From: Psammoneis japonica | Taxonomy: Eukaryota | Direction of reading: 5' to 3' | Length of the DNA: 64,000 bases | NCBI GenBank assembly: GCA_008632985.1 | Contig: QPGO01000008.1 | Location: 724,979-788,978, forward strand | Shown: piece by piece, positions 1,700 through 36,830 of the stretch | Numbering within the stretch: the stretch's first letter is position 1 | Layout: each line of letters starts with the position of its first letter | Notes under the pieces: model-generated | Told to the model about the DNA's origin: nothing | Database searches by the model: none | Seen by the model: the letters and a program-made list of their open reading frames with translations, nothing else | Program-made: the position numbers and the translations under genes

Positions 1700-2962
1700 A
1701 CCTGCAAAACACTGAACCTCAGGAGATTGTCTCAATTTGCTGAGGTGGCCAGATGATCACAAACACCATCAGCTGACTGTCAGCCAATTGCTGTCAACTC
1801 TCTCTCTCAGGTCCTGCAAGTGCCACATGCAACACTGTCAGATGACAACAGCCACACCACTCCTCCATCTTCCATGCCACTCACCCAAAGTGCAAAACAC
1901 AACAGCCACAGGTCTGAACTTGTGAGCATTTGCAAAGTGCAGTGAACAAACACAATTCTGATAAAATGTCCGCACCGCAACAAACCTGTGTCAAGATTCC
2001 TGGTGCACAAGACAATCCCTTCAATGCCAGATTTCGTTTTTGAGACAACAGCACCAGCCTGGCAGGGCTGGAGGGGAGCAGGCATTGCCATTTCTTGATC
2101 TGACACAACTTGATGAGCCACATGCCTGTTGCTGCTTGACAAGATGCCACCACAGGTCAGTTTCATCCCAGAAGATGCAATTGTCTCTTTTTGTGGTAAA
2201 TTCCTTGTGTGTGAGTGGCAGTGGTGCCAAATTGTTGATGACCCTTTGGGGAGTGCTGCAAGACAAGCCATCAAAGCACTCCTCAACACCACAGCAAAGA
2301 GCTGCAAGAGAACTGTTGCAAGGATCCCTTGACAAGCTGTCAGAGGCAGAGCCAGAACATGGGAAAAGAGCTGGCAAAATGCAGCCACTTTTGGAGCCGG
2401 TTGACGAGTGCAACAAACCCTCTCACAAAAACTTCTGAGATAAAATTCATTTGAAAAGGGAATGAAGCACCACAAAAAACCCTCAAATCCAAACTTGTGA
2501 GCTGTTGAGCATTTTTCAGTGGTTGCAAGGAGATCACTCATGATTCCTTCATCAGAACCAGTGGACCACAAAATGCAAACATCTGGGTTGCTGGCATGCC
2601 CAAAGTCAACTGGCGGCTTCAACCTGGGGAAAATTTGTTTGTGCAAAACAGTTTGCTGGCTCAATTGGCCACTGCAAGAATGAGGACATCAATTGTGTGC
2701 TGGAGTCCATTGACAAGAGCTTTCTTTTCATGGGTGATGAGAAATTGCTGGTCCAAATTGTGGTGCAAAACCTGGCCAATCAACTTTGCTTTGCACTCAG
2801 CTCACCTTGCATCATGAGTCATCAACAACATTGTGAACATTCTCCTGTCAATGGAAAATCAACAGGAGTGCTTTGAAGTGACACCAGAGCCCATTTTTGG
2901 GACATCTGACAGCAGTGTGATCAGGACAAGATGTGACACATTGCCAGGAAACTAAGTTTGGG
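1700..2962. mobile_element. Unclassified, highly degenerate transposon relic (left part of the sequence hit by the Gypsy insertion)
   Basis: TpA- and CpG-depleted. Only Tyr-free Cys/His-rich fragmentary ORFs. Lies directly outside the Gypsy 5' LTR. Confidence 0.45.
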
Positions 2963-2966
2963 TCAG

Positions 2967-3466
2967 GTGCAGCATGCAATGCTGACTGCTGGCAGATGCT
3001 GCATCCCCCATGACATCAAATTTTCAAAGTGAAGCCAGAGTCCAGGGGAAGTGCACACTGCAATTGCCCACACAAGCTTGCACTCACTCCAGTGAGTGGG
3101 AGCATTGGCACAATTGATGGTGTCAATTGTGAGTGATCCATGCAGAGAGGTTGTGCAGCAACTGACCATCAATGTGATGCCTTGGATGCATGAAGACTGT
3201 GTGTGTGAGGCATGTGCTGTGCAGTGCTCATCAAGTCCCAAGCTGAAATTGAAGCAATGCTTTTCATTCATGGATGAACACACTCACACATTTGCATGAA
3301 GAAGTGAGTGTGCAGCTTCCAAATGACCAAAGACATTTCTTGGCCAAATGAGCCAACTCAGAAACATTCTCACAGTTCTTGCAGTCAGCTCTGCAACCCA
3401 TCAACCCACACCCAATTTCAACCACCTGCTTGACACATGAGGCACAGTGTGACATTGCTCCAGCAC
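2967..3466 (+). repeat. Gypsy 5' LTR (approximate)
   Basis: Aligns along its length with 14308-14802, e.g. ATGCCTTGGATGCATGAAGACTG in both. Confidence 0.75.
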
Positions 3467-6400
3467 AAGTGTGTGTCAAGAAAATTTCTTGTGAGACAAC
3501 ACATGCCCCCAATGACAACACATGGTTGTTCAGACACAACCAGCCCTGTGATCACAAAAAAGAGGGTTGTTCCTCCTGTTCCCCTGCAGGAGCATCCTCC
3601 AAAGAAAGAGCTGACTAAAGGCAAGCACCAAAGGCACGAGCTGCACAACATGCCCAATCACAAAAACTGAAAACTGTCCAGTGTGCAAGTTGAGCATGCC
3701 ATGCTTCAGAACTGGAATGTGCAAAGAGTGGTTGCTCCATGCCGCCCACAACTCCAAGCAAAGTCATTCTTGGAAAAACATCATGACCAGGCTGGAAAAG
3801 TGCTTGTTGGCTCACATGCTCTCAGAGGGCAATGCTGTCACAATGTTCAACAACAAAGCATTCAAATGCACACTGCTGAAACAAGTGCCAATTGTGCTGA
3901 GTGCATGATGAAGGCAGTCACAGCAAGCATCTTCCCCATGTGATGACGGCGGCACTTCTTCAAAAATGTTGCTCAAGGTGTTTTGTGCAAAAGCCTCCAA
4001 GATGAAGATTCTGCACTGTGTCATGAGTCATGAGGGCAGCTGAGATCAATGGCTGCTCAAAGGATTTCCCTCCTGTTGCAGAAGGCAGGGATGATCTGAC
4101 ATTGTTGCCAGGTGATGAGCTTGTTGATTTGTTTGAGTGTGGAGTTTTCCAAGTGCATGGCAAAAGCACATGGTCCTGCTCCGTAACTTTGATCCACACT
4201 TGCTCTCACACACTTGCAGAGCTCATTTCATTTTGCAAACAGAATGAGCAAGTTGAAGCCACTGAAGGCAGATTTCTAAAGATGGCTTCTTCTTCAAAAA
4301 CCAATGTGCCAAAAAAGAAAGAAGTGGGGCAAAGGCAAGGATGACCCAGAGCTGCTTGTTGTGGGTCACAAGTGCAGCTCAAAATCATGCCCATTGCACA
4401 GCAAGAATTGTGGCCATTCAACAAATGATTGTCAATCTTTGCAGCATCAAGTCAAATGCACAAAGACTTCACATCCATCTGGGGCCAAAAAGAAAAACAA
4501 TCAAGAGGAGCTGAGTGCCATCATCAACCAGGCAGAGCTGAGAGAAAACACACAAAAGCCCAAGCACACCAAGATTCAAGACAAAAAAATCAAATCAATT
4601 CAAGCCACTGTTGCTTTTGAAGATTCTGATGATGAAGACAAAGGGCACCATGTGGTCTGAGAAGGAGGCCAGCACAACACCTCCAAAAGTTTGGCAGTTG
4701 TTTGAACAAATGTCTTGACACTGCACTTCAATTCCCTGGAAGTCATGCTGCAGGCCAACCCAGAAAATGGCAAAAACTCAAACAGCACATTGTGCCAACA
4801 TTGTTTGCTGCCTTGAAAACCAGCTGCACATGACAAAGGCAACAAAAGTTCAAAAAAGAATTGCTTGACAGTGGAGTGAGTGGCATGCCAGTTGATGCTC
4901 GCCACTGTGCAAAACTCCAACAGAGAAGTTCAGCCTCATTGAAAGCTGGAAAACTGTTGCAGGAGCACTCAAGACCAACCAATGTTGTCTTGTTTGCTTG
5001 GGTGAGCTTCCAGAGATGTCTGAGATGGCTGCTGTTGAATCCAAAGTCCATGCGGACAGGGGCAAATTGGGTGTTTGTGCGACACAAAAGTTGGCCAAGA
5101 CACCCTGGAAAATCTGGGCATTGATCTGGCATTTTTTCATCAGACCACATTGAATGGCCTCAAGCAAATGGGGAGATTCCATCACAACACCCAGATGTTG
5201 CATCCAATGACTCTTTTTGTGCAAGGAATCAACACTGTCAAACAGTGACAGTGAGAGAATCTTGGCCACTGAAAGTTTTGGCAACTTCAACAGGAAAAAC
5301 TGCTTTAGACTCTAAAAGAATGTGAGTTGTTGTTTGATGGCACACCGGGCAAGTGGAAAAGTGATCCTTGCCACATCCAGTCAAGTGCCAAACCACACTG
5401 TGCAAGACTGCAAAAAGTGCTGCACTTCTGCAAGCAGGTGCTGAAAGAAGATGAGGTGAAGCACCCTCCATGCAAGATCAGCACATTGAAGAGGGCAAGC
5501 TGCTCAGAGCAGGTGACACCATTGTTTGTTGTCCCAAAAAAGATCAAACAGCGCAGCTTGTCAACAACTTTTGTGAGCCAACAAACAAGAGAACAAAGCA
5601 GATCCCTTGCCCCTCCCACACATTCAGAGCTGCTCTTGAAACTTGAGGGTTTTCAGTGGAAAATGTTGCTTGATCTGAGTGCTGGCTGCCACCACATGAA
5701 GCATGGCACAGCATTTTGAAAGCTTTGCTCCTCAATTTTTCCATGGGAAAAATGTGAAATGCGGCAATGCCTGCCAACACATTTTTCAAGAGAAAATGTC
5801 TGTTTTTTTTTAGGATTTGTCATTTGTGCACATGTGCATGGATGACCTGCCAGTCATCACAAAAACACATTGGATGATGACCATCCCAAGAAGAAGTTGC
5901 GCACTGTGCTCAAGAGTCTAAAGGATGCTGGACTTGGAGTCAATGCCTCAAAGTGGTTGCCATTCTCTCAAGTGCACTCTCAGAGCATCTCTCAGAAATG
6001 AGGTCACTGGTGAAAACATTTCACCCTTGAGGAAAAAGGTTGAGAGGCCACAGAGCACATTGCCAAGCCAAAGACCAAGAAAAACTTTTGTCATTTGTTG
6101 GCATGGTGAACTGCCACTGCCAAGATCCATGGTTGCACACAGATCAGATGTTTCAGCGGCCCTTGCAAGACTTGCAGCAGGCAGGACCTCCAAGCGGGAG
6201 CAAACTTCCATTGAAAAGAAAGCACTCCAAACCATCAATCAAGTGATGTCAAAGGACACACTTCTTGTGCATCTTCATTTTGACAAGCTGTTCAAACTCA
6301 TGCTGATGCATCCAAATGTCAACTTGGAGAGCAGTGACATCTCAAGACAGCAAACCCACTGCACTTGCCTTTGCAGCAGGAAGCTTGACAATCCTCAACC

Positions 6401-6836
6401 AAAATTTTGCACAGCAATGAAACAAGAGTTGCCTGCGGCCATCAAGACTCTGAAAGAGCTCAGCAGGTCTGCTCTCCTTGGTCATTGCATTGTTGCATCT
6501 CTGATGGTCATAAAAACCTTGTGCACAAAGCACTCAACACCAAATGTGTCCATGTCAAAAGCTGCCACAATTTGGTTGCAGACCATTTCAGTGATCTCTC
6601 AACCTTGAACCTGTGTGGTCCAATGATTGCCAAAACATCCAAAGTGTGTGTCCTCTGCATGAGGAGGCCTTCATGAACAAAAGCAAAGGTGATCATGATG
6701 GATCCTGCTGGTTTCAAGAAAATCCAACACAAACAGCAGAAGGATGAGCACCTGTCTCAATGCTGGCATTTTGCACAGCTGCTCCATGCACTCAATTTGT
6801 GAGGGAGAAACATCTGACAGACAGTTGATTTGTTGT

Positions 6837-7081
6837 TGACAGAAAATGAAGATGACTGGGTGGAAGAAAACAATGACTCCTTGCTGCTGTCTAAATGGCA
6901 GATGAGTCTCCATGCAGAGACCGTTGCAGGAGTCAAAAGACTGGTGTCGTGATGTCGACACTGCTGTTGTTGTTCTTGTGAGCCAAGTGGCTCGAAAGCA
7001 AACTGCATCGCGCGATGTGCGCGGAACTAAGAGCACACACAATCATGTGTGACAAACTAAAATCTTGCTCAAATCCTGTCA
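6837..7081 (-). repeat. Copia-1 3' LTR (245 bp)
   Basis: Matches 11507-11755 with 23 substitutions and one 4-bp indel. Confidence 0.95.
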
Positions 7082-8217
7082 CTCCCCAGTTTGCTTGAGG
7101 GGTCAACAATGACAGATTCGAAGTCGGATTGGTTGAAAGCCTCGGGATCGAAGTTCCAAAACATTAGAGGACAAAGGAGGTTCCAGATTTGGCAGCAACC
7201 CCAATGCTTGCTGAGGATGTCAGCCGGGTTGCGGGAGCCTTCGACAAAATGAAACTCAAGGAAACTGGAGGCAATCACCTCACGCACACGATGGAACGAG
7301 AGGGCGGTGTGTCGCTTGTGTAACTTGGAGTGCGGGATGGCAGCACTGTCCACAACCGACTTGTTGTTTTCCAGGAAGATCATCATTCGCAGGCCACAGA
7401 GAGACACTGCTCCGGAACAGACACTGTCAACGGGCATGTCTGTGAGGTGTCCATCGGCAACAAGCCTTGCTTTGTGCCATCCGTCATGTTTGATTCGGAC
7501 GTGATCTCCCCATTCTCCCATTCAAGCATGATGTTGCAGCTTGAGCCTTTCCAAGAGGGATCATGGGGTGGCAATGGTCCTTCGTGCGATGCGGTGCATC
7601 GGAACTTCCAGAGGGTGGTGTCCTCGTCTTCTTGCTCAATGTGGTGCATGATGTCATTGCAGGCCAGGACTTCCTCATGTTTGTCATTGTTGATGGAGCA
7701 AATGAACTTGACCAGTTCAGGATTGTCTCCAATTTTCCAGTCATGGTCCTCAACGACTTTGATGATGCGGGCTCTGTGGCATTGTCCATCCTCTTGTGGC
7801 TTCATGAGGAAGGTGCATCCTGTGATGTCCTCGGGGTCAAAGACCAGCATTTTGGGCATCCTGATTGCCTCCCCATCTGGTGAAGCTGGCAAATCCTTGG
7901 AGTTGTGGTGGGATTTAATGACAGGTTCAGCAGATTTCTTGTCAGGAGGATCAAGATGCAGGTTTGGAGCAGACGGATCACGGGCGGAGTGCACATTGGA
8001 ATGGCAGAGAATCTTCTGAGTGTTGTCAGAAAGAATCTTGAATGTCATTTGGTGACCAACGTGCTTGGCGATGTGCGGGAGGCCGGCTTTAATGTCGATG
8101 GGAATGACGCATCCATCAACAGTGGTGATGCGCTGCAGACCGTTGGGGACCTTGATGGACCGATCGTTGACATTGTGTTTGTGCACCACTTGAGCTGGCC
8201 GCAAGAGTGTGTCATCT

Positions 8218-8548
8218 CAATGGGAATCATTTGGGTCCTGAGAGTCATCACGTAGAAATTGTGCAGGAGAGTCCAAAAAACAATTGTCATCAGTCTGTCC
8301 ATCCGTCCGTGTGCGAATGTCAACTTCTCGGGAAATCAATTGAAATGCCATCTGATTGACGGCATTTTGATTCACATGGTGAAGGCCAATGCCATCAATC
8401 AGATGGCATTTCAATTCAGTTCCCGAAAAGTCATTGGCTCTGATCACTCTCTCGCATGACATTGTGCACATTTCCACATGATTTTGTGTTTTTCCTTGTG
8501 TGAAAGATCAATTGTGACCCACGCGACATTTTCGAATGATTCCTGTTG
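8218..8548. mobile_element. MITE-like insertion in Copia-1 pol, with an internal long hairpin
   Basis: Interrupts the ILHQ-A-TGKG / THSCGQL motif. 16-bp terminal inverted repeats (CAATGGGAATCATTTG vs CAACAGGAATCATTCG). 43-bp inverted arms at 8324-8366 and 8388-8430. TSD not resolved. Confidence 0.65.
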
Positions 8549-10133
8549 CCCCTTTCCAGTGCAGGCTCACTGGTGAAGGATGGCAATGGCAGGGCCGCGT
8601 TGTGTGTGGATGACACCACCGGCAGTGACAATGGGAATGTCTGCTGGTTGATGATCATTGACACCTTGGACGTCAACGTCATTGGGCTTTGCGTCGGAGC
8701 GGACGGAAGGTGCAGATCCGGGCGGTTTCTCACCAGAACGGGCAGAAGGAGGCTGTTCAGGTGCCAGGAGATGTTGCAAGTCGCCGGGTGGCAGGGGCTT
8801 GTGCCTGGTGAGATGAGCCAGAATGGGGTCAGCATCGGCTGCATCAGCTGCAGCGTCGGATTGTGCGAAGGCTGATGCAAGATCGCAAGTGTTGGCGGAC
8901 AAGTTGACACTGCATCACTGCCAATGTGGAGGTTGTGCAGGTTGACCACCGTCAAGTCATGGCAGTTGCCGGTGTGGGCGGTGTGCGAGCCAAGAATGGC
9001 AGCCTTGGTGGACTGGGGCAAGGTGTCCCAAATGCGCTGATGGTCCGGCGGGATGCGACGCCATTGTTCCTTGGTGAGGGAATTGCCACGAGTTTGTGCA
9101 GCACAAGCTTGGATGATGTCAACATCACTGTCGATGTCAAAGAACACATCGTCATCAGGGTCGTCGGGGACTGGGTCGTGTTCACAGATGGCACGGCACG
9201 GAGCGCGAGGAGCCATCTTGGGGGCGAACGTGCTGTCGTGCTGTGCTGCAGCAGAAAGCAGGAGTCCACAGTGCTCTTCGTAAGAGAGCCCCTTTCCATT
9301 CTGCGTGCAGAACTGATCGGCCTGATTCTTCATGGAACGGAGTTCTTCGATGGGATGAATGGCATTCTCAAGCATGACACATTTCTGGCCAGCAGAGAAA
9401 TGGTCCGCACCCGGGACAAGAGCTTCGTGCTTGCGAAGCTGGTCCTGCCAGTGAAGTGTGAAGGCATGAGTGGATCCTTTTCAGGTGCCACTGCCAAGGC
9501 GAGCAGTGGTGAGGTACGTGAGAAGGGTTGAGGACTCCAGGGATGCGTGAGTGGAAGTGAGGGTGCACTTGGAGAGGTCACAACAGACCACTTGAGCATC
9601 AGAGGAGCCAACATGTTGATGAACAAGTGCCTTGCCTTTGTCATTCTGCAAGATCCGTTCAAACACTGCGAACATGCACTTCTGTTGTTCATCAAACAGG
9701 GCCTTGTCCTCAGCTGCAGAGGGCTTGTACGTCGGGTTGAGAGTGCATGCGATGTCTTGGGAGTGGGCCTGTGCGATGACGGAGGTGTGCCATGTGTGCC
9801 ACTGTTTGTCGGACTTGAGGAGCGCGAAGGCAAGTGGGTCACGTTTGATGCCTCGTTTAAAGTCACACACAGGATCATGTGGTTTGGGTGGCAACAAGCC
9901 AGGAGTGGGAGCAGATGGTGCTGCACCCATGGAGAAGGACGCCACACACTCAGGACTGAGATGACAGTTGGTGAACTCCTCTTGTGTGAACAATTGAGGG
10001 TCATTGCCAACATCCGCGCCGCCGTGCGCTTTTGCCGCATGCAGGCTAATCAACGCAGCCATCTGTGCTTTGTGACCATGTGGCAAAGGCATTTGATTGG
10101 TGCCGTCATTGTGTGCAAGGGCATCCAATTGCA

Positions 10134-10532
10134 GACACGTTCCAGCTCTAGGTGGGACCTCGCACTGCTGCACTGTGACATCAATGGTTTTTTGGATCGC
10201 GTCGCATGTCGCACACGTGCATTTCTGTGTGTCACATTCTACGAAATTGTTTCACATTTTCCCTGTTTTGCGAAGCCAAAGGCTTTCTATTTTCAACAGT
10301 TGTGAGAATGAAAATGCATTGGGTGCATTCTTTAATGTCTGTAGAATGCACCTGGGCAAACTGTCATTGATGCACTCCAAGCATGAAGGAGGAGACACGT
10401 TCGTAAAATTGCCTCTTTTTCTGTTGGCGATCATTCACATTTTCATTGCAGTGTGAAATTACTGCAGAGCTCACACGCAGAATTCTGCGGGCCCAATGTC
10501 ACACGGAGTCCCACCTGGGGCTGGAACCTGTC
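10134..10532. mobile_element. MITE inserted in Copia-1 gag
   Basis: 25-bp TIRs (GACACGTTCCAGCTCTAGGTGGGAC vs GACAGGTTCCAGCCCCAGGTGGGAC) flanked by TGCA on both sides. Removing 403 bp puts gag ORFs 10499-10681 and 9481-10173 in one frame. Confidence 0.85.
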
Positions 10533-10744
10533 TGCATCGGAGCAAAAGTGAAAAGGTCCTGATGCAAATCGGTTCCATCAATGTTGAGGGCGGAGCGCAA
10601 TGGACTGTCTGCGGCTTGATTCAGAACAGTGCCTGGAATGTGCTCGAGGCCATCAATTTGCTGTTGCCTGGTGAGAGCCATGTTGCAACTGGGTGGATGT
10701 CGGAACTGGCAAGAATCAAAGTGTGGGCTTGAAATGACTTGAAA

Positions 10745-10787
10745 CTTGACTTGAATCTTGACTTGAATCTTGACTTGATGTCTTGAA
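10745..10787. repeat. Short tandem repeat (CTTGACTTGAAT x~3.5) in the Copia-1 leader
   Basis: Seen directly; 12-bp period. Confidence 0.8.
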
Positions 10788-11506
10788 CCATCTCAAGAGT
10801 CAGAAGCCGCCGGGCTGTGATGTCCCGTTCGCAGTTAAGTGCCAAGCTTCCCATCCAGTCTGCAGAGTTGTGCCGGCATGTCCGAACTCACAGCTGGCGA
10901 TGCTTTGGGTTGCTTGAGAGCAGAGTGACGGGTTAAAAACCCCTGCTGACAAGCCATCCAGAGGTGGACAAGACCTCCGAACCGTTCTTGTTTTATGTTG
11001 GTTGGACAACCTGATCAGGCCGGCCAAATTTGGCGCTGTGGATGGACGAACAAACGTGGGAAATGCACCCTCGCCCCAATGCAGGCTGCAATCACAAACT
11101 GCTTCCTCTCACAGTTGTCCTCGTGGACCTTGTGGGACTGTAGAAGACCAGCAATCTGGTGCAGATGCAAGGCGGTAGACTTGGCGTGCGTGGAGCAGAG
11201 CCAGACTCAGGGGTTTGTGTCGTGTGCACGTGGACGCAAGCGGATGGATTGGCAGGATCCACTGTGAGGAATCCAGAATCTCGGATGTCTGAGAATTTGG
11301 GAATTCCTGGCCAAACAAACATCCGTTGAACAAACACATCCAACGATGGGAGGCATTGGATAAATCCAAACATGTAGATTTAATCCAGCACCCAGCAGTG
11401 AAGAAGGCAGATGTGTGCTTCCACCACCAATGGTGCACGTTGTCGAAAAATTTCTCGATGACGATGATGAACGCTCAATGGATGATGAAGAGCAAGGCTG
11501 TCAATC

Positions 11507-11755
11507 TGACAGAAAATGAAGATGACTGGGTGGAAGAAAACAACAACTCCTTGCTGCTGTCTGAATGGCAGATGAGTCTCCGTGCAGAGACTGTTGCAGG
11601 AGCTGAAAGACTGGTGTCGTGACGTCGGCACTGCTGTTGTTGTTCTTGTGAGCTGAGTGGCTCAAAAGCAAACTACATCGCGCGCACGACGTGCGTGGAA
11701 CTGAGGGCACACACAATTGTGTGTGATGAACTAAAATCTTGTTCAAATCCTGTCA
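11507..11755 (-). repeat. Copia-1 5' LTR (249 bp)
   Basis: Matches 6837-7081. Flanked by the TSD GTTGT. Confidence 0.95.
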
Positions 11756-13053
11756 GTTGTCAGGACAAAATTTGCACCCCCCAGAGTCATTGCAGAGAAG
11801 CAGCTGACTGAGTGGCACCATGTGCAGCTGCATCATCCAGGAGAGACACATGCAGGCCAGAAAGTGCTGCTGCCCAGCATTTTCTTCACTGGAGAGACAC
11901 AGCAGCACAAACTGCATGCTCCAAATTTCAGCTTGGTTTTGCCATGAGATCCCCTGAAATTTCTCAGGATTGCTGGGCAGTGGTCACAAATGCTGCTTTG
12001 TCATGTGTGCACTGCAGACATGAATGTAAACTCACACGTTGGGAATTCTCCATGCTTCCCCTTGCACAATTTGCCACTCAATGGACTCACACACCAAAAC
12101 CGTGTGACACCACAGCAGACAACACAAGCCAGAGTTCACTCAATGATGTGTCAACTTCTGTCAGCATGCTTCAGCTCACATTGTGTGTTTCATGCATTGC
12201 CATGCTTTGAAAGTCATGCTGCACTGTAAAAAAGCAAGTTGTTCTTGTGCATGATTTTTCCCTTTTTTTTAGATGCCACAACATCCCGTGCATCTGCTCT
12301 CCTCCTAGATCACCATGGGGCCACATGAAAGTTCATAAGATGTGACATGATTTTCATTGCTGAGCCTCTGCAAGGTCCTCTCATCACAAAAGCATCAATT
12401 GCAGTGACTGCCAAGTGCTCGAGTGGGATGGCTGGCTGGGCTGGCAGGCAAAAGCACACCCACCCAAACACAATCACTGCACAATTGCCGCACAATTCGC
12501 TTTTTTTGTTCCCCTCCCCTGGGCCCTTTCAGGTGTTCAGTGCCACAAAACTGCTCTTGTTTCCTGGGTGTTCCCCCAAAAAGGCATGGCAGCTCCTCCT
12601 TGCCTTGGTCATTTGGGTGAGATGTCCCCCAAAGAGGCAAAACCAAGCTGAGCTCCAAACACGCGACTCATGTCAAAGGACAAAAAGGCGCAATCTCAGA
12701 TGTGGGGGCTGCAGTGCAAAGAAAAAAGCAGCAGAAATTGTCCCATGGGAAACCACAAAATTTGCACCCCAGAGTCATTGCAGAAGCAGCTGACTGAGTG
12801 GAGCCATGTGCAGTTGTGCAGTCCAGAAGAGACAAACAAAAAGAAGTTGCTGTTGTGCCCGGCATTTTGACAACTGGTGCAACATGACAGCCATGTTGAA
12901 TCATGTCACAGAAGGTTTAAAAAAAAAGACACAATCTCAGATGTGAGGAGCTTCCCCAAAAGAGGCAGAAAATTGTTCCATGGGAAACCCTTTGAGAGCA
13001 GGTGTGGTTGGAGAGAACACACAGTCAAGAAGTGCAAAAATGAGACGTCTCAG

Positions 13054-13500
13054 TGCAGTGTGCATGCAGACAAAAGGTTGTTTTTGTCACGCCCTTTGTG
13101 ACATTTAAAGGCTGCAACACGTCGCCGTGACACATTGGCTCTCATTGGCAGCTGTGTGTTGCACTCCTCCCCATGTGTCACGCGTCCACACGGCTCTTTG
13201 CTGACGTGTGCTGACACTGCACGGTTTTGGCAGAACAGTGTGGGTGCGTGCGAAGGAACACACAGAACTGCACAGAGTTTTGCGCGTTCGACAGTGATCA
13301 ACGTTGCTGCAGACAACTCCCACTCAGGGTTTCGAACCCCTGGCCTCCTGCCTGATGGTTGCGATGAACCACTCCACTGTGAATTCACAACGCAGCATGC
13401 ATGCAGACAAAAGGTTGTTTTTGTCACGCCCTTTGTGACATTTAAAGGCTGCAACACGTCGCCGTGACACATTGACTCTCATCAGTGGCTGCATGTTGCA
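13054..13500 (-). mobile_element. TRIM-like miniature LTR element (447 bp) with an internal tRNA-like segment
   Basis: Two 110-bp direct repeats (13054-13163, 13391-13500) around 227 bp. PPT CATGGGGAGGAG on the minus strand directly before TGCAAC. Internal A-box-like and B-box-like (GGTTCGAAACC) motifs. Confidence 0.75.
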
Positions 13501-14307
13501 CTTTGCACTTGCGGGCAGGCCAATGGCTGTGGTTGTCCCAGTGGCTGAACAGTTTGAAATTGCCCAACTGACTGCCAAACATGCCAGCATCACAGCCCAC
13601 ATCATCAAACAGACCCTTGGTCATTTTTTTTCACCACCAAGAATGGCGGGCACATGATGCACAAACCGGCAGCCACACCAACTCAACAAGCATGACTCAG
13701 CTTCAGTGCAAATTTGCCATTGGTGAGCTGCAGCCAAAAAACACCTCACCGTGGCAACTCCACTTCAACCAAGGAACTGAGTTCATGGCTGAATTTTCAG
13801 TCAACTGGCTCAAGAAGAGGGCTGTGGTCTCCGAAAGAAACCCACAAGCAAGCAAAATCTGTGGGTGAGCACCACAGTGGAGTGTGCAAATCAGATGATC
13901 AGGAACATGGTGTGGCCATTCTCAGTTCAACACATGTGCAAGCCTTGTGCAGCTGGCAAGGCATTTGACAGAGATGTGATGTCACACACCACACATTGAG
14001 CCACCCAAGTGGAAATCTGCATGGGACAGAAAGCAAAGAGAAGCTTCTTGTTCACACGACAAACAACAAAAAACAAAATGCCGCTGAGAGACAAAACTGC
14101 TGATGTGCTCTGCAGCACAATTGGCACTCATCAAACAAGAACAAAAATCATCATGTGCAGGCCCTGCCAGAGTCATGCAAGTCAATGACAATGGCGCGCT
14201 GCACACACAAGATGGTGTGCCAACAGACAGGTGCAATCCAAGGCACAGCAGGCTGCATTGGTGCATCAGACCATGCTGGTGCTTCATGATCCATGTGACA
14301 GGGGAGC

Positions 14308-14802
14308 ACGCAACATGTGATGCTGACTTCTGGCAGATGCCAGCCACATCTCATGATGCGGAACTTCCAAAGTAAAGCCAGAGTCCTGGAAGAAGTTTGC
14401 ACTGTGACATGCCTGTGTGAGCTTGCACTCATTTTAGCAAGTGGAAGAAATGCTGTGATTGATGGCATCAGCTGCAAGTGCACTGCACAGAGAGGTTGTG
14501 CAGTGACTGGCCATTGACGTCATGCCTTGGATGCATGAAGACTGCACATGCAAGGCATGTGCTGTGCAGCATTTGCCAAGCCCCAAGCTGAATGTGGTGG
14601 AGCAATGCTTTTGCCGCAGTTCACAGGTGAGCATGCTCATGCAGCTGCATGAAGCGAACATGGCTTCCATGCAACCAAAGATTTCTTGGCCAAATGAGCC
14701 AGCTCAGAAATGTTCTCACAATTGCAGTCAACCACAGTCTGTCAACCTGCCCAATTTCAACCATGTGCCCATTGCATGAGGCACAGGAGATTGCCCCAAC
14801 AC
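14308..14802 (+). repeat. Gypsy 3' LTR (approximate)
   Basis: Follows the integrase C-terminus (GPARVMQVNDNG) and the PPT. Aligns with 2967-3466. Confidence 0.75.
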
Positions 14803-14806
14803 TCAG

Positions 14807-16375
14807 CAAAGACCCAAGCTTGGGGGATGTGCTCCAGAAGCCAATGCAGAATCAAGCTGTCCCACTTTGCTCATCCAACTTGGTGTCACTTCAGCTGCAG
14901 TGAATGACCACCATGGCAAGGCCATTTTTTGAGTGACAGGCACCTTCTTTTGCACTCCATTTTGAAAACAGCTTTTGCAAAATGCCCTTGCTCAACCTTT
15001 CTTGGATGCTCCCTCTTTGGAAGAACTTCACAAGATCAGCACGCAAAAGGACAAAGAGTTTGTGGGATGGCTTTTTGCATCAGGCCTGCCCTCCTTGCCA
15101 ACCCATTGAGCAGAGTGGCAAAGTGAAACCACCATGTGCTGGAGCTGCAGTTTCAAGGGTTTCTGGTCGGGAAGTCAGCTGACTCTTGTTTGTGGTGTGA
15201 AGATGTGAAGATGACCAAAGAAGACACTCTTGGCTCTGGACAAAATGGTGTGAGGATTGATGGGCAGTTGAATGTTGTTCTGTTGCAGCTGAAGCATGGG
15301 GCGGTGCTGGGTGCTGGCAGGCCCAACAGCAGCAGAAAGAATGAACAAACATCACAAGCAATTTTCTGGCTGCATGGCTGACCTTTCAAGGCACAGAAGC
15401 ACGCACAAGATTTCACAGTGGAAGGGTTGTTGGCTTTGTTGTGGTCATGTGCAACAACAAGCAATCACCCCATGCAGAGGCATGCTGCCTTTCAGCACAG
15501 TTGACGAGGAGGGAGGGAGGACAACCAATGTGGTGTGGAGCCAGCATCAAAAAGAATTCAAGCAGTCTCATTTCAACAAACCTGACAGGTTGGACCACGC
15601 AGATGGATCAATCTGGCAAGTTGTGACTGGGTTTGGTTGGTGCACCTGTCAAGCCAACAAGAAGAAAACAAGAAGCACCAGAGCAAGAGGTGTGCTGTGG
15701 AGGCAAGACACATGTGCCAATTCTCATCATCATCCTTGGCATCACAAACATTGGCCAATTTCAGCCAGCTTGAGCTCTCAGGAGAGTGGGGTCATGGCTG
15801 AGCAATTGCCACCATTCCATGAAGGGGGGTCAAAATCTAGGCTGGCATGCACCCTCAGCCAGTTCTTGAACCACCTGGGGAGCAAGAGCCATCGCAAATG
15901 GCGGTTTGCCAAACTGCTGGCTCTGTGACAGAGCAACTGCTGGGCTGGTGGAGAGCTGTGGTGCACCATGACCACCCCCAGCACACATTGTTGTGTTGTT
16001 GAGAATTGTCCTGTTGTGCTGGATTTAAAATTCATGACCAGCCACAAACTCCAAATTGGCAACATCTTCCTCAACCCTCCAAGCACACAGCATGCTGTTT
16101 TCTCCCCACGGGCACGCACACTCACACACAACACAAGCAAAGACATTGAGCTGCAATGTTGTCACCAGAATGCACAGAACTGAAATTGACCAGCTTTGCC
16201 ACTCAATTCCAAGGAATGCTGTTGCCACCAATCATGTGCAAGAAATGACAACAAATGATGATGTTTCAGCCTCAGAAAACTCCAATCAACCAACTCACCC
16301 ACTGATCAACTTTTTGAAAAACACAAAACGCTGTGCGGCACCGCGCGGGCGCTGCCACAACTTGCCAAAATGTCT
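14807..16375. mobile_element. Unclassified degenerate transposon relic (right part of the sequence hit by the Gypsy insertion)
   Basis: Same TpA/CpG-depleted composition. No intact ORF. Ends abruptly at ~16375. Confidence 0.45.
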
Positions 16376-16644
16376 GTTAAAACGCACATCCAGTACTGTA
16401 TGTACGGTAACATAACAGCAGTTAGACTGACCTGACTGTCTGGAGAGATCTGGCTTGCGCGTATAATTCTTAATATATGTATATTTTTTATATAATACTC
16501 GGAGGTGGCGTTTATTATGTGTAATTAAAACACGAATAAATTAAAAATGCGACCGGCCAACTTGCTTTGTACCTCGCTCATTTTTTTTCACCGCTCTTTA
16601 TTTTCTCACAATCTCACAACTCACAAATCTTTCACCAAATTAAC

Positions 16645-17843
16645 ATGACAGCAGCCAGCAAGGGTCTAGCGGTGCCACGAGTCCGTTTATCCACCCGAAC
16701 GTCGAGCGCGGAAGTTGACAAGAAAAAGGAAATGCTTGAGGCGTCCAGTTCTGCAGGCACCGCGACCATGGTCGACGCAGAGCAGCACATTGAAAACTCC
16801 ACTGTTCGCTCTCCGACCTCCGTGCCAAAGAGCCGTGATGCGAACCTTAAAGATTTTGTAAGATTCATGGGAAATTCAACCTCCATTTCCCAGGTAACGA
16901 TCGAACAGATCGAACGAGTGAGGATGATGCACGATCGTTTCGCCGATGGGGCTAGGTTCTCCTTCAACTACAACGTTCTCCTCCTCGTGGCTTCCGTCAT
17001 TGCTGGCCTCGGCTTGGTGTCGAATTCTTCAACTATCATTATCGCTTCGATGCTTGTGTCACCAATTATGGGACCGGTTGTTGCGATGGCCTATTCAACA
17101 ACCATTCGAGACTGGAAGCTTCTTCGGAAAGCGCTGGTCACTGAGACGGTCTCATTAATATTTTGCATTCTCTCTGGTGTGGTCATCGCCGCAATATGTG
17201 GACAAACCAGTCTAGGGGATCAATGGCCGACGTCGGAAATGACCTCTCGTGGCACCTGGGAAAACTTTTTGGTTGGACTTCCTGTGGCTTTCTTTAGTGG
17301 CCTCGGAGTTGCTGTATCGCTCTTGGATGACCAGACCAGCTCCCTTGTCGGTGTGGCAATATCCGCTAGTCTATTGCCACCCGCCGTCAATGCGGGAGTG
17401 ATTTGGATTGCCTATGCCTATTTCCATTCTGGCACATTGGTTCCGGAAAATGTGGTCATGGACCCAGAACTCCTTGAAGAATTCCGATCAATGGGGGTGA
17501 TTAGTCTTTCGTTAACCTTGGCAAATATCGCATTGATTTGGGTTTCATCCATGTTCATGTTTCGTTTGAAGGAGGTAAGACTTGTAGATTGCGAAACTAT
17601 TCTATTTCTTACGAGGCAGGAATTCAATCCAACTTCGTGTCTTTCGTTGAAACATCATAGGTACTACCAATCGAGAAAAAGGTATTTTGGAATGACCTCG
17701 GCGTAGCTCGGAGAATATATCAGAAACGAGCTTTTGTTGAGCAGGTGGATGCCGTTCTGAGTGGTGACATCGATTCAATCAATGATCTAGACGACGAAGT
17801 TGAGGTCACTTTGCCTGATAAAGCGACCGACAGCACCGTGTAG
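16645..17843 (+). CDS. DUF389 family membrane protein; 2 exons (16645-17574, 17661-17843)
   Basis: Motifs IIASMLVSPIMGP and LVGVAISASLLPPAVN. GT-AG intron 17575-17660 gives an in-frame exon ending in TAG. Confidence 0.9.
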
Positions 17844-25803: not shown

Positions 25804-27027
25804 GATTACCGATTATCTGTGTATCTACACTATCACCGCAAAAGCTACGGTCCTTGCTATTCGCTCTTCGACAGGTGTCAGTGGCGTTGCAGATTGCAGG
25901 TCGCAGGGTGCTATTGCTAGCTCTAGAGAAGTATCTTGCAGTAAGTGTGTCGAGTGTCGATGACGCAGATGCAACAAGAGGTGCTATGCAAAGCAAGATC
26001 GCGTGCGAGCGAGTGACGGACGGACTGCCCACGATCTCCCTTTCTATTCTATCTGCAAGTCGTCCGGATCGTTGTTGCCGTGGTGCTGCGGAGTTCATTC
26101 AGTCGCACTGGGTGCTGACTTTACGGCATGTGGGGCCCTGCTCTCTACCAGCTAGTGGCAGGAATTAAAACACTGTGGGTTCCCGTGACTGTTCCACATG
26201 AGAAATCCAGCATCCCCAACAAAATTGTTGTGGTGTTTTGTCGAAGTCAGCAGGCAAGGGTGTTGCCGACCAAGCCCCGCTCGAAAATCTCATTGCGACA
26301 AAACCAGCTGGCACACCTCTCACTCAATCTCTCTTGGCAATGATGTGCCAGAGACACATTGCATGACGCACACATGCCATTCTTGCCATGTCCGTGTCAG
26401 AAATGGGCCAAGGCAAGCATGCGTGCATCATTGCCAAAAGTCTGCAACACGCCGTTGTGCTGCTGGTGTGTCATCAAAACATCGGGCCAGTGGGAGAGAG
26501 CTCTGTTTCTCCCCCTGCTCATGCCAGCTGATGCACTCTCATTGCAGAGCTGACCTTGTCTGGGAGGCTTTCTGATCACAGACATCATCCAAAGAAAGAG
26601 CCTCATTGACTGAGATGTGTTTTTGAGCAGCACCCCCGTGCCTGCAAAGTCTTCCTCTCCATGGGCACCCCAAGCATGTCATGTCATTGCCAACCAAGCT
26701 CTAGACTCACCAGAGTTCAAAAAATCCAGTTCAACAAAACTCTGCTGGCTCTCTCTCTCTCTTCAATTGACTTTCCTTCTTGTGTCACTGTCTCTTCTTT
26801 GTGTGCACAAAAAAAGCAAGAGCAGTGTTGCTTTGCAAGGGTGGGAAGCAAGTTTCCATGCAGCCCCATTGTCTGTCCAACAATGCACAAGAAATCTTGT
26901 GCATGCTGCCTTGACCTTGTGATGGATTTCAAAGTGGAGGACACACATGTGCCGCTCCTCAATGGCCAACAGCGACCACGCAACAGGGCACCTCTAACAA
27001 CCAGACCTTTGCACACAGCTCCACAGT

Positions 27028-30000
27028 TGTCAGCAGACTGGCTGCTGTCTGCAGTCAGACTGTGTGCCAACAACAAGATGGGCTCTTTAGGCAGATGAGC
27101 AGATCTCTCTGAGATCAGCTTCTCTCACTCTTTCTCACTGGCACATGTGTCATCCACTGTCGCCAGTTTGCAGGGAGCTCTTTGGCTTGTTTCACTCTTG
27201 CCATTGGCACTCTGTCAGGTTGTGTCACCCTTTTGTTGCTTCCTCTGACTTTGATTGGGATGCAGAGTCAAAACAGGTCATTCAAGGCACTGGCACCTCC
27301 GCTTGTCTCAAGGACAACACCAGGTGCATCTGCCAAAATGCCACCATTGAAAAACTTTTTTGCTCCACAGGCTGTGGTGCAAGCTCTGCATGTGCATCTT
27401 TGTTTTTTTTAGAAGTCTTGCTTGATGGACATGCAGTTGAATTTGGGTCACAATTCATCTGTGTTGCAACTTCCACCATGATTTTTTGGGCTTGTGAGCT
27501 GAACAAGCATGCCACCATTTTTGATCCTGGAACAGAGTTTTTCACAGCGCCCAAGACAATTCTCTGGGCCACAGAATCACACCAAGCTCTGCATGTTTTT
27601 TTGGCAAAAAATCATCACACCGATCTCACCATGGCACATCCCACCCCAAAAAAGGGCACCGTTGACACCCTTGCCAAGATCTCCGTGGTGTTCAAACCAC
27701 ACACTCACCAATGAGATGCTTCCAAGCACCTGAACAGCTTGCGTGGTGGCTCTGTCATCAATCTGGATTAGTTCTTTGATGATGACAAACATGCATGATC
27801 AAAAGATGGTGTTGTTGATCTCTCAACTGAGCATGTCATTCAAGAGATGATCCTCCCAGAGACTGTGCACCCTGCAGATGAGCTTGCAGTCATGCAGTTG
27901 ATCGACAAGTGCCCTCTGCGCATCACCACTGGAACCGCGGACAACTCTCTTTCTTGCCTTTCTTGTCAGATGCTAGATCACAAGATCAGGACTGCTCTCA
28001 AGATCAAGCATGCAAAGGTGATCAATGCAATTGATCCCAGGAATGTTCATTTTGACCCCAATGTGAAGCACTCACATCAGGATTGGAGTGAGTTTGCTGA
28101 CACCCCACACCCACCAATGTGCGCACCCAAGACCTCTGCATCATCATCTGCCAGTTCAGGTGGACTCACAATCTCTGATTTGATCACTGCTTGGAACAAC
28201 AACCATGCTGCAATGGGCACACCAGCAACAGGAGCTCCCAGTGGATCTAAGACCCCCACTGTGACCTTGTCTTCCAAGCTCTTGTTCAGCCCGGATGCTT
28301 CACCTAAAGATGTCTGTGAATGATTTGACCACAAGGCCAAAGAGAAGGTGGTCCTCCAGAACTCTCTAGTCCAACACTCCAGCAGATTCATGCATCATTT
28401 GGATGGTGCAGACCAGCTTGTCCCACCCAAGAATGGCTCTCCATTTGTCATGACTTTGACCCCAGATCATGAGGCTTCATTCCAAGAAACCAAGCTTGTG
28501 CCATGGTCTCCTCACGGCATTTGTCAGCAGTGCATCAATTTTCAGCATCACGGCACTGACAGTGGCTGCAACATGCATCCCCTGTGGTGTTTCAAATGCA
28601 GCCAAGGTGATGACACAGGTTTCACCACCAGCAATGCCCCCCTGGCAACCATCTGCTGCAACACATGTGCTCAGGTTGCCTCTTGGCATTGCATGCATTG
28701 CACAAGCTCTTGTCACATCTGGACATGCTGTTCCTGAAGAACAGCAAGCTGTGCTGCATTGTGGCCACTTGCGCTGTGGTGGCAATGTTGTTGCTGCAAA
28801 GCCTTGAAACAGATTCTAGATTCTGTTTCAAGTTCATCCAGCTTTTTGCAGCCAATGAAGCAGCAGGTTCAGTTGACTTGTGCCCCAAGCAAGGCAACAA
28901 CCTCTCCATCAATGACTGCTTTGTGCTCTTCAAGGATTTTCTGCAGCCCTGTGCATTTGATTTTGATGATGATTTGTCGCTGGACAATGACAGTGGTGAG
29001 ATGACTGTTTTTGTCAAGAAGGCCAAGCACTCAAAGTTCTTGACCTGTGTCACCAAGAATGAACAAGCCTCTCCAGCTCTTCAGTGCAAGTGCACTGAGA
29101 AGCACTTTGTGGAAACACTTGGCTTGTTTCTCAGTCAAGCTGACAGTCCCCTTGCTCATGAGTCACCAGCCAGTTGAGTGCAGAACCCCTGCCAGTCCTG
29201 CAATTGCTGTCACACCCCATGCCACACAGCTGACATCAGCAGTCTTGATGCAGTTGATCCACCTGAAATGGAACCTGCTCCTGCTGATGATGTCCCTGAT
29301 GATGCTTTGGTCCCACGTGACAACACCTCAGAAACCCTTTGTGATGAATTGGAAGCCATGGGTGTCCCTGCCAAGGACAATGATCGTGTCCTTCATCACA
29401 CTTGCTCAGCTTTGGTGTTCAAGCTCAAGGCACCCCCAGCAGAAGCCACCAAACATCCATGTTTGGTGTGTGCACTGGCAACCATCTTTTTGATGATTGT
29501 CCCATTCTGCAGAGTGACCCTCTTGCATCAAGGATTTTCACATTTGCTTCTGTCAATCATTGAAACATGAAGCCACTCAGCATGCTGCTGCCTTCAATGG
29601 CACCCAAGGACTCTTGCCTGCTGGACAGAATGGGCAAGCCACCTCTCTTGCTAAATCTCAGCTGGAGGATTTTCAGTCGGGCCATCGCAGCCAGTTTTGG
29701 ACCAGGGACGCAGCCCGTCATCTCCTTTCTGAGACAAAACAGATGACCATGGGGGCAACTGTGAAAGAGGGACTCACCATTCCATTGCCTTTTTGGACCT
29801 GGGATGCAGCCTGTCATCTCCTTTCTGAGACAAAACAGATGACCATGGGGCAACTGTGAAAGAGGGGCTCACTGTTCCGTTGCCTTCCACTGACAAACCT
29901 CATTCTTCACAAGACAATTTCATCCAGAATTGCGTGAGACACCTGTCCTCCAATGTCACCTGATGTCAAGACTCTCACAAACAGGTGCTCCACGCAGTCA

Positions 30001-33000
30001 ACGGTGAATGGAAACAAGACTTCTTCACAGTGGATTGTTTCTTAAAATCCAAAGACCAAGGAACCTGCAAGCATGTTGTGAAACATTGCATGCAAAAAGC
30101 TCAAGACATCATCATCCATGGTCAGCTTGACAATGTCAAGTGTTTTGCCCATCCTTCAATCTTCCCAGAATTGAGTGAGACACTTGATGCAGCAATGTTG
30201 GAACTCAAAACTGCTGACCTCAAGCTTGGAAAAGAATTCAATGCAGTGGTGGGACACACAATTGATGCCCACAAAGAGAACCCAGAGCATGCCATGAAGA
30301 AACAACACAAGCTCATCCCCTGAGTGTGCCAAGATGTTCCCTTCAAGACACACCTTGAGGACAAGGCACCAGCCGCCCCAATCTCTTGAGGCTGACACCA
30401 AACGTGCACTTTGGCATCAACGTCTTGGCCATCCCAGTGATCACCACTTGCATGACACCCACAAACATGTCAAGGGTGTTCCCAAGCTTGCTCATGGTGA
30501 ATCTCCTTTGGACACTTGTCCTGCTTGCATTTGTGTGAAACAGAGACAAAGAGCCCTGCTGGCCCCAACTCCACACACACCGTGACCCAGGCCTGTCAAG
30601 GACCAACAGTGGATTTTGCTTTCTCCAGTGTCAAATTGAAGAATGAAGAATGTGCAATGGATTGTGCCAGCCTCAATGGAGAAACTTGTTGGATTCTCAT
30701 TTACAACCACCACACCCGTCATCTCCAATGTGCCTTGATTGAACATGACATCTTCTCCCCTCCTCCTCTCCCACCAAAAAAGAAGAGCATGTCCTGGAAC
30801 CAACCATGGCAGATGCATGAGCTGTTGCTGAGCTGTGTTTCCCTCACATTGATTTCTCTGTGCTTGACAATGTGGAATCTGAATTCCTCCTGACAATTGA
30901 CCATGCAACACACGGCACTTTCAACAGTTTTGTGATCTTGTCTCATGCCATCACACTGGAAGAGCAACCTCTGAACAGTTTTCCTTGCAACTGCCTCAAG
31001 AAACTGCCTGCATGGGACAAGTGGCATGCAGTGAATTCAAATGCTCAATCATTTTCATGCCATGGGCATGTTTGGTGCACCAATCAAGTGACCAAATGAT
31101 TCAATTGCACTCTGTCCCAATTGGCAGTGCAATGTCAAGATGGATGGCACTCTGTGTTCTTGCTGTTGCTGTGGTGGTTCCTCATGTGCTGCTCCTGCTT
31201 TGCACTGTCTTCAGTCTGCCCATTCCTCCTGCATGGAACAACTGATGCAACATGTGTTTTTTGCACCATCAGCTTTGATGGGATGCCGAGTGCACTCTGG
31301 TGATGTGCAGGATGCTTGTGCCCACTCACCTCATCCTTCAACACCAGTGTTTGTTCAGATTGATGAGGCTTGTGCCACATGGCAATTGCTTTGGTGTTGA
31401 CTTGGGAAGGTCTGTGGTGCTGCTGATCCTCCATGCCTTGCAACAAGGACACCCAGAATCTGGTGCACATTGGGAGAATCACATCAACAAGATTCTTGCA
31501 GATGCCAAACCATTGTTTCACAACACTGCCCATCACAAGTGCATCCATGCCTCCATGTTTGAAGGCAAGCAGATCCTCCTCCTCCATCAGGTTGATGATT
31601 TTCTGACAGCATGTGAAGAGGAATTGCACACCATCAAGATTTTGATGCCATTGGTGAAGTCCTCTGCCTCTGGGCAAAGACTTGATCTCTTTCAAGTGCC
31701 TTGGCCCATGCAATGAGTTCAATGGTGTGGACATCCACCAACATGATAACTCACATCAATTGCATGCTGTGCATGTCTTGATCAGGTCCTCACATCACAT
31801 GGTTGGCTTGTCCCCGCTGCTGATGAATTGGACACTGATTGTCATGCTGCTTCCCTCCCAGTTGAGTGTGTTTCGAAACTGTGCTCCGATGTTGGACCTG
31901 TAAATGCACTCCCAAACATGAGGAACTTGCTGAACTCCATGGTTTTGGCTGTCAAAACCTGCTTGGTGAGTTGTCAGGTGCCTGCGTGATTTGTCATCCT
32001 GACATTGGTCATGCCATCACTGCCCTGTCAATGCCCTGAAAGGCCTTGCGAAGTGTCTTCATCACAACAAGCATTGGGGTGTCAACTGCAAGACACCAAC
32101 CAAGGACACCACACAGCTGTTGCACTCTTTTGAATGATTGGAGTTGGACCCCACCCTTCTGGAGTTCCCTGTTGCAGATTCACCTGCTCAGTCACTTGGT
32201 TTCTTGGATGCAGCACATGGCAATGACCTCTGCAACTGTCGCTCCACTGTTGGTGGCTGTGAGTGCATGCTTGCTGGTGCCACCATTTTGCATCAGCGCA
32301 AGATGCAGATGGTTGCTGCAATGAGCTCTGCTCAGGTGGAGTTCCATGCAGCTGGCACTGCTGCCAATCATGCCCTGTGCCTCTGCTCAGTCCTTTGGGA
32401 ACTTGGTTTGCCCAGGATGGCCCCACCCTTTGTGTGTTGACAATGAGCCAGCCATCAAGATCATCAATGACCAGATCCCTGCAATGCATTCCCACCATGT
32501 TGATGTTCAGTGGTTCACAATTCAAGACTAAAATGAAGCCAGGCATGTTGTCACTTGACACACTCCTGGCACTGTCAACGTGACCTTGCCAAGGCTCTTG
32601 GATCCATGCTGCATGCACGCCATGCCATCGGATGATGGGACACTGTCAATGACACTCTGTTCTGCTCAACTGTGTCTTCTCTAGAGCTGCCCTGGGTTCC
32701 TTTTCTATCTGTTCTCTTTTTGAGTCATCTGGTTTGACCTGTGTTCCTTTGATTGTTGATTGTTTCCTGTCACACCCTCCTGTTTTTTCTGTCTTTGACC
32801 CACCACATTGGCTTCGGAGTTGACATGCTGCTGGATCAGGGGAGGGCATCAGCAGACTGACTGCTGTCCATGGTTAGACTGTGTGTGGATGACAGATGGA
32901 CTCTTTAGATGGACAAGCAGCACAGATCTCTTTGAGATCTGCTTCTCTCACTCTTTCTCACCAGCGCACGTGTCATCTGCTGTCACTGCTGGTTTGCAGG

Positions 33001-36704: not shown

Positions 36705-36830
36705 CTCTCCCTGGGGAGACAATTTTGTGAAAGAGTCGTTGTTCCAGGGCCCATTGCAGCCAGAGCCTCTCCCTGGGGAGACAATTTTGTGAAAGAGTCA
36801 TTGTTCCAGGGCCCATTGCAGCCAGAGCCT
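36705..36830 (+). repeat. 62-bp tandem duplication
   Basis: Two copies differing by one CG/CA change. Confidence 0.9.

Follow-up and report, generated by a model that had tools for sequence, protein, structure and literature searches.

Conversion of TpA to TpG/CpA after insertion, with same-strand micro-clusters, in transposons of the diatom Psammoneis japonica

A TRIM-like element within a TA-erased repeat block

The window analyzed here is a 64,000-nucleotide stretch of contig QPGO01000008.1 of the diatom Psammoneis japonica. Among named homologues, those closest to a housekeeping frame in it are diatom proteins. Its Pfam-annotated genes fall outside several repeat blocks that have been nearly emptied of TA. 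The genic DNA has a TA O/E of 0.60 and a CG O/E of 1.01, while the repeat blocks have 0.06 and 0.23, with TG and CA at about 1.8. The boundaries between the two are sharp to about 250 bp. In the block that holds the elements described here (Table 1), the TA count per 250 bp is 0–5 inside vs. 18 just outside, the TA O/E is 0.01–0.17 vs. about 0.6 in genes, and there is a sharp genic edge near 16250. Further TA-erased, low-CpG blocks lie at 26250–33500 and 35500–41250; they contain short tandem duplications and the repeats at 27030–27200/32850–33020.

The original prediction took the nested LTR element for a younger Copia-1 that keeps many CpGs and few TAs, and its host for an older Gypsy lacking both. 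The compositions agree with this: TA and CG O/E are 0.05–0.18 and 0.60–0.70 in the nested element, and 0.02–0.07 and 0.07–0.15 in the host DNA around it. The labels fare differently. A Pfam scan of 63 ORFs over 1.8–16.2 kb gave no retroelement family match in the nested-element ORFs, and the Copia designation is unsupported. The Gypsy label of the host rests on a weak RT_RNaseH_2 match (E 0.01) and on relatives, 66–70% identical, with the gene order RT-RNaseH-integrase. The nested element also contains an inverted repeat with 53-bp arms and a 3-nt loop at 8323–8431.

The short element at 13054–13500 is one of many. Its internal 23-mer has 218 exact matches across the genome, and 95 of 105 copies with intact ends are surrounded by a 4-bp target duplication. 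The window copy has no matching 4-bp duplication between its flanks at 13050–13053 and 13501–13504; it may be a recombinant or have suffered a flanking deletion. With short direct terminal repeats, TG..CA ends, a target duplication and no coding capacity, the element has the characteristics of a TRIM. There is a purine tract on the minus strand beside the left repeat, and no primer-binding site was identified in the element. On the minus strand of the interior (13327–13378), a palindrome resembling a B box and a stretch resembling an A box are spaced as in a tRNA gene, which suggests a tRNA-derived Pol III promoter; ARAGORN found 0 tRNA genes in the window stretch holding the element and in five TA-rich loci.

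The 447 bp contain 2 TA vs. 25.2 expected and 22 CG vs. 30.6 expected, both expectations being calculated from base composition. Of 29 sites of TA origin, 27 are converted, and 2 of 23 CpGs are lost (13231 and 13375). The terminal repeats are as had been predicted: two 110-bp direct repeats sharing four CpGs, differing by exactly four TG/CA doublets, and retaining one TA each, in TTTAAA. The ten positions that differ between them are accounted for by the doublets (13059/13396, 13146/13483, 13149/13486 and 13155/13492) and two single transitions (13054/13391 and 13138/13475). The TA-bearing ancestor that had been reconstructed for the doublets has a natural counterpart in copy L122, which is nearly intact and holds 35 TA. 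Compared with L122, each window repeat has 11 differences, every one of them A>G or T>C, and 10 of them at TA. L122 has TA at doublets 2–4, near the 3′ end, in both of its repeats and at doublet 1 in one. Doublet 1 is also TA in L121, L123 and L132; across the copies its states are TA 1, TG 10, CA 67 and CG 2. For doublets 2–4, the corresponding counts are 8/4/4 for TA and 0/1/1 for CG. The prediction that the start of the element is a converted TA-rich run did not survive, because 13059 alone shows TA in any of the copies, and even the TA-richest ones have none at the remaining TG/CA steps of the terminus. The TTTAAA site keeps its TA in 70 of 85 copies on the left and 81 of 88 at its partner. 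At the eight repeat CpG sites, CG is the majority state throughout, and TA occurs at none in the copies aligned.

Table 1. Positions of the features discussed, numbered within the window.
Feature	Position	Strand	Remarks
TA-erased repeat block	1750..16250	.	Holds short element, nested element and older Gypsy-like host
Nested LTR element (earlier "Copia-1")	6837..11755	-	245-bp LTRs, 5-bp target duplication
TRIM-like non-coding element, 447 bp	13054..13500	-	TG..CA ends; strand inferred from purine tract
Left terminal repeat, 110 bp	13054..13163	.	10/11 TA converted, 4/4 CpG kept, 1 co-mutated neighbor
Right terminal repeat, 110 bp	13391..13500	.	10/11 TA converted, 4/4 CpG kept, 1 co-mutated neighbor
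TG/CA doublet 1	13059..13060, partner 13396..13397	.	Sole TA-derived step of terminal run
TG/CA doublets 2–4	13146, 13149, 13155 (13146..13156); partners 13483, 13486, 13492	.	
Resistant TTTAAA site	13104..13109, partner 13441..13446	.	Single TA left in each repeat
Four CpGs common to both repeats	13090, 13120, 13123, 13126 (13090..13127); partners 13427, 13457, 13460, 13463		
TAA>TGG micro-cluster	13136..13138	+	Converted TA, next A also changed
Converted TA at 13388, T>C 3 nt away at 13391	13388..13391	-	Both changes on the same strand
Polypurine-tract-like stretch adjoining left repeat	13164..13173	-	Read from sequence; role inferred from LTR anatomy

Origin of the doublets and relation of TA loss to CpG loss

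Since TG and CA are the products of both TA and CG, the origin of a doublet has to be decided from other copies of the element. The set used comprises 91 of the first 100 anchor matches listed; the nine omitted are places already present in a set of 30 copies picked earlier by likeness to the window, which was itself left out for measuring loss rates. Over these 91 copies, the 29 TA-origin sites are TA 423, TG 1177, CA 868 and CG 19 (CG 19/2487). The 23 CpG sites are CG 1770, TG 114, CA 93 and TA 0 (0/1977), and sites of stable TG or CA have TA in 3/5815. These site-state counts, with the TA found in intact copies, rule out a CpG origin; the doublets come from TA, as had been proposed. The TG/CA excess in TA-erased repeats cannot be read as CpG decay.

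The two terminal repeats of an LTR element are identical at insertion. Paired repeats in the copies show a TG-vs.-CA difference in 363 instances at TA sites, compared with a single instance at CG sites; hence, conversion took place after insertion and separately in each repeat. The choice of strand is nearly independent between partners (0.632 vs. 0.595), which at most sites rules out partly converted masters as the main source, and the invariant TG/CA steps may have been inherited from such masters. Dating of TA-converted elements by LTR divergence would badly overestimate their age. Both strands were edited inside every copy, the per-copy TG fraction running from 0.42 to 0.76 without overdispersion. 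It is clear from these observations that the conversion starts from TA, follows insertion and operates on both strands. Nearly all short-element copies, including the near-intact ones, lie in flanks that are already TA-erased (L031–L120). Therefore, the short element lands in domains where conversion has already taken place and undergoes it later itself.

We also considered whether the pattern could be passive or an artefact, produced by CpG decay, variants inherited from masters, editing during reverse transcription, or sequencing error. TG and CA do arise from CpG decay as well, and there are subfamily indels among the short-element copies. Nevertheless, we find such an origin scarcely credible given the TA of the intact copies, the near independence of strand choice in paired repeats, and the editing of both strands in every copy, unlike single-pass cDNA editing. 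Editing of cDNA by APOBEC-type enzymes yields strand-biased long tracts, whereas here the TG fraction is not overdispersed and strand concordance is at chance. As for sequencing error, the contigs of run X1, possibly from the source sample and so no independent support, are letter-identical to the assembly over TA-erased stretches, matching 12000–13080 and 14707–17500 with no differences. Run X1 departs from the assembly by one C>T and by one doublet at 13917–13918, which is CA in the assembly and TG at full depth in X1. The doublet is a haplotype or isolate difference and hints at recent separate conversions.

Coverage was sufficient in 84 of the 91 copies; there the mean loss is 82% for TA and 10% for CpG, against 0.23% transversions. 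The search anchor contains two of the CpGs, which by construction cannot vary; counting only the others gives a CpG loss of 207/1795 (11.5%). In every one of the 84 copies the TA loss is higher than the CpG loss, in line with the prediction that TA conversion is the faster process. The TA:CpG hazard ratio is near 15 with the anchor CpGs left out, and 23 when taken site-wise on 120 copies, some of them picked by similarity. We regard a 15–23-fold excess in the short element as firmly established.

Whether TA loss also runs independently of CpG loss, as predicted, has a mixed answer. Across the short-element copies the two losses are correlated (Spearman 0.45, p 2e-5), and CpGs are lost at 4/245 sites in the 11 least-converted copies vs. 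190/1653 in the remainder. In a young Gypsy family (21 loci), CpG loss is 84/657 (12.8%) in TA-converted tracts vs. 10/319 (3.1%) in TA-intact tracts (p 4e-7), a 4-fold elevation. These relations are what would be expected if both losses were outputs of one heterochromatin state and differed in rate only. The nested element behaves otherwise. It was followed in 31 copies, of which 30 were selected for their similarity to the window copy and one came from a second search. TA loss is bimodal: 26 of the 31 have lost 67–93% of their TA, while five have lost 17–27% of TA but 15–42% of CpG, the latter at independent sites. The TA sites were largely defined by those same five copies, so their TA loss is an underestimate. 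The correlation of TA with CpG loss is not significant (rho 0.22, p 0.24). With CpG lost and most TA kept in five copies, TA erasure looks separately switched, and a single coupled process, which moreover supplies no chemistry for TA, appears improbable to us. The simplest reading is that the two losses occupy overlapping domains, with TA conversion having its own on/off state. TA loss is ahead of CpG loss in the short element, as predicted; the five nested copies show that its lead is not universal. One local domain has CpG decay and little TA conversion: at L163 and L123 (G000:C160, about 67–72 kb), a TA-rich short copy adjoins, or is contained in, a copy of the nested element that is likewise TA-rich but from which 42% of the CpGs are gone.

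The CpG loss itself probably reflects decay of methylated cytosine, a second and slower process in the overlapping domains. Such decay cannot yield TG/CA from TA. The slower CG>TG/CA loss would fit the DNMT5a-dependent CG methylation of transposons described for Phaeodactylum (PMC9998398).

The boundaries of conversion can also fall inside an element. In young 5.3-kb Gypsy copies, a few hundred bases suffice for the TA count per 250 bp to drop from about 20 to about 3, while CpG counts do not change. In the reverse-transcriptase region, roughly 1 kb of intact TA forms an island in seven of eight full-length copies chosen for their TA-rich parts; other copies are converted throughout. TA conversion is confined to domains. 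The island is at about 4500–5500 in L233–L239 and at 330–1100 in L209. CpG is better kept there too, and the LTRs, gag end and integrase of the same copies are converted. Copy number is unsupported as the cause of the protected island, since first-look candidates, a rough proxy, numbered 101 for the protected and 112 for the converted part.

Sequence context and same-strand micro-clusters

The TA steps that survive lie mostly between a pyrimidine and a purine, TTTAAA being the commonest residual context, and ATAT, ATAC and GTAC are nearly gone. After the edited A, C or T is favored over A or G (share 0.57 and 0.52 vs. 0.31 and 0.35). Each conversion event is a micro-cluster: on the same strand, adenines lying within 1–3 nt of the converted one mutate to G as well. 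At 13136–13138, the second A is mutated in 42 of 82 copies with TG, 1 of 24 with CA and 0 of 13 with TA. This TAA>TGG change occurs independently in the two repeats (7 copies in both, 33 and 14 in one only, 59 in neither; p 1.0). At 13391, the base with which the right repeat begins, T>C is found in 41/94 copies given CA, 2/17 given TG and 0/8 given TA.

The same pattern is seen generally. In the short element, A>G at +1 is found in 104/655 cases where the TA converted on the same strand, 31/1061 where it converted on the opposite strand and 0/743 where the TA is intact (column-matched OR 12.6), with ORs of 7.4 at −2 and 3.7 at +2. The Gypsy family has 45/685, 7/975 and 4/991 (OR 11.6), with ORs of 3.5 at −2 and 6.0 at +2, and 17/736 vs. 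0/610 at +3. In the nested element, the effect is weak (OR 2.8 at +1 and 2.3 at −2), and its CpG control is also positive at +1 (OR 5.7, z 2.4). Column sign tests over offsets −3 to +3 give 39:5, 58:28 and 90:16 in the three families; over offsets 5–8 they are null at 13:22, 37:49 and 50:44. Neighboring G/C bases near a converted TA show no effect. TATA goes to TGTG or CACA, that is, by way of one strand, in 136/161 vs. 58.5% under permutation. TGG does not stem from a second hit on TGA already formed, because TGA of non-TA origin is stable, mutating in 4/830.

The clusters are short. In the short element, strand concordance does not depart from chance over 5–336 nt, nor does it in the nested element at distances of 5 nt and more. 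Long strand-coordinated tracts were looked for and not found in these two, and the Gypsy family has one weak bin, at 13–30 nt, that is slightly concordant (0.523 vs. 0.502, z 3.6). TA pairs three bases apart have a bias toward opposite strands (273 vs. 230 expected and 123 vs. 95 expected in two families). Such opposite-strand pairs were seen at 13143–13150 and 13480–13487 of the window and at L199–L221, yet lone +3 adenines co-mutate on the same strand.

Sharp domains, a single dinucleotide, both strands, and clusters of 1–3 nt are together better explained by an enzyme that strikes many times on a small scale than by spontaneous decay. A targeted, enzymatic cause is accordingly very likely in our judgment. 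The original prediction also had an enzyme in mind, reasoning that the faster process should be the enzymatic one. That reasoning is unsupported by rate alone; the support comes from the edges, the context preference and the micro-clusters. Given this footprint, the candidate chemistries are narrowed to those of an enzyme working on a patch of 1–3 nt. Within that constraint, the best fit appears to be an adenine deaminase on locally opened DNA, which we advance tentatively, at somewhat short of even odds. A host enzyme would mutate TpA steps in marked repeat domains after an element has inserted, changing the adenine of TA to G on either strand (equivalently T to C on the other). It would do so through many small independent hits with no long strand-coordinated tracts. 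Each hit would expose about 1–3 nt to either side on one strand, and nearby adenines would sometimes be changed. A TadA/ADAT-type or similar deaminase might convert A to inosine at a locally opened, flexible TA step, with the inosine then read as G. The opposite-strand bias of TA pairs three bases apart is unexplained by the deaminase model. Also weighing against it are the lack of a preference for CA over AA away from TA sites in the Gypsy family (31/2623 vs. 32/2344), the +1 signal of the nested-element CpG control, the slightly concordant bin at 13–30 nt, and the B. natans changes described below, all of which were reported on TpA.

A>G and T>C are symmetric in sequence, and two other chemistries therefore stand beside the deaminase. 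The first is short-patch repair, in which TpA carries a lesion or mark that is cut out, and the gap is filled by a Y-family polymerase (eta- or iota-like) that places G opposite T. This would account for the same-strand clusters and the A>G-only spectrum, and for a neighbor effect that peaks at +1 and is weaker by +3. Five Y-family polymerase loci are present in the genome, including Pol eta-like and Rev1-like frames. Pol eta in somatic hypermutation likewise favors A>G after T. On the other hand, it mutates WA, AA as well as TA (PMC7884765), and makes longer repair patches. In the Gypsy family away from TA sites, isolated AA is nearly spared, at 32/2344 (1.4%), in the same tracts where about 90% of TA is lost, which rules out a classical Pol eta WA spectrum. 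Long strand-coordinated patches were not seen, neighbors on the 5′ side (−2) are also changed (OR 7.4, 2.3 and 3.5), and a TA-specific trigger would still be required. We rate polymerase refill as a doubtful alternative. The second chemistry has the thymine of TpA oxidized or otherwise marked enzymatically in repeats, and T>C results from its mispairing with G. Dinoflagellates are known to have modified thymine in repeats. A search for the TET/JBP family, run with no positive control, found no match in the genome, and near-complete conversion would demand a strongly miscoding adduct. This chemistry seems to us unlikely, and more so than refill.

Known systems and candidate genes

A TpA mutator has been described once before, in a 2026 preprint, acting on viral inserts of an unrelated alga. 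New here are its action on diatom transposons, the near completeness of the conversion, and the same-strand micro-clusters. In published work on diatoms, covering few subscription papers, we found no report of TpA hypermutation. The earlier case is Bigelowiella natans, in which integrated sequences of NCLDV and virophage origin undergo TpA>TpG/CpA (Mettrop et al., bioRxiv 10.64898/2026.01.13.699255). The preprint gives the rate in viral inserts as about 6e-7 per site and generation, roughly 1000 times the background; 11 of 15 lines show the process, for which an ADAT2-type deaminase is proposed as the candidate. Its main text does not contain "diatom", "CpG" or "tandem", and describes RIP as C>T.

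The two systems have in common TpA>TpG/CpA on both strands, as A>G/T>C. Both strike foreign or mobile DNA and spare genes, viral inserts in B. natans and repeats in the diatom (TA O/E 0.06 vs. 0.60 genic). In B. natans, the activity is present in some lines and absent from others; in the diatom, TA loss is bimodal between copies of the nested element and patchy within Gypsy copies. The B. natans observations come from mutation-accumulation lines with silent viral inserts, the large one single-copy, in which TpA is still abundant, whereas the diatom targets are multicopy retroelements near saturation (O/E 0.02–0.1). The diatom data go beyond those of B. natans in the co-mutation of neighbors, the context preference, the fronts within elements and the measured relation to CpG decay. 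The main text of the preprint places all changes on TpA with no neighbor changes (bioRxiv 10.64898/2026.01.13.699255); in the diatom, by contrast, neighboring non-TpA adenines co-mutate.

Fungal RIP, like the diatom process, acts on repeats once they have inserted and densely marks both strands with transitions at one type of dinucleotide. RIP makes TpA from CpA, depends on a RID/DNMT4-like methyltransferase and takes place in the premeiotic phase. It thus creates TpA by C>T, whereas the diatom process destroys TpA and never leaves TA at CG sites. RIP is also duplication-dependent, while in the diatom one rough test, the Gypsy family counts given above, is of similar size for protected and converted parts. 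The diatom transposon case suggests a widespread putative genome defense, opposite in direction to fungal RIP. We offer as a speculative possibility a dedicated mutator for diatom genome defense that naturally edits adenine in double-stranded chromosomal DNA. This mutator would open TpA in chromatin-marked transposons, treat a one-strand patch of 1–3 nt per hit, and be switched on at individual loci separately from CpG methylation; diatoms and rhizarian algae would have it in common as an ancient "reverse RIP". A natural adenine editor of double-stranded DNA, if it exists, would be relevant to the base-editing field.

The genome contains TadA/ADAT-family genes, which are candidates, although such genes are expected in any eukaryote. 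One complete TadA-like frame (L222) appears by eye, in E. coli numbering, to have the aspartate typical of RNA-acting TadA, which speaks against the deaminase reading. No natural TadA/ADAT2 member is known to act on chromosomal repeats. TadA/ADAT2 and TadA-derived base editors are alike in producing A>G via inosine after a 5′ T/U, in preferring a following C, and in editing bystander adenines (PMC10586758, PMC10354150). They differ in needing single-stranded or loop DNA and in their wider editing window. The C or T that follows the edited A in the diatom goes in the same direction as the natural TadA substrate U-A-C-G (PMC10586758), and deamination of A in DNA by ADAT2 has been described (PMC10354150).

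There are 27 matches to C5 DNA-methyltransferases in the genome; five full-length frames were confirmed, and several are broken. That number is above expectation for a diatom. Two of the matches, L243 and L244, adjoin TA-erased blocks. Finally, on the minus strand of L225 (319–1791), a zinc-dependent deaminase domain is fused in frame to a 2-oxoglutarate/Fe(II) dioxygenase. The fusion probably serves base salvage, and the pairing is an odd one in view of the two candidate chemistries.
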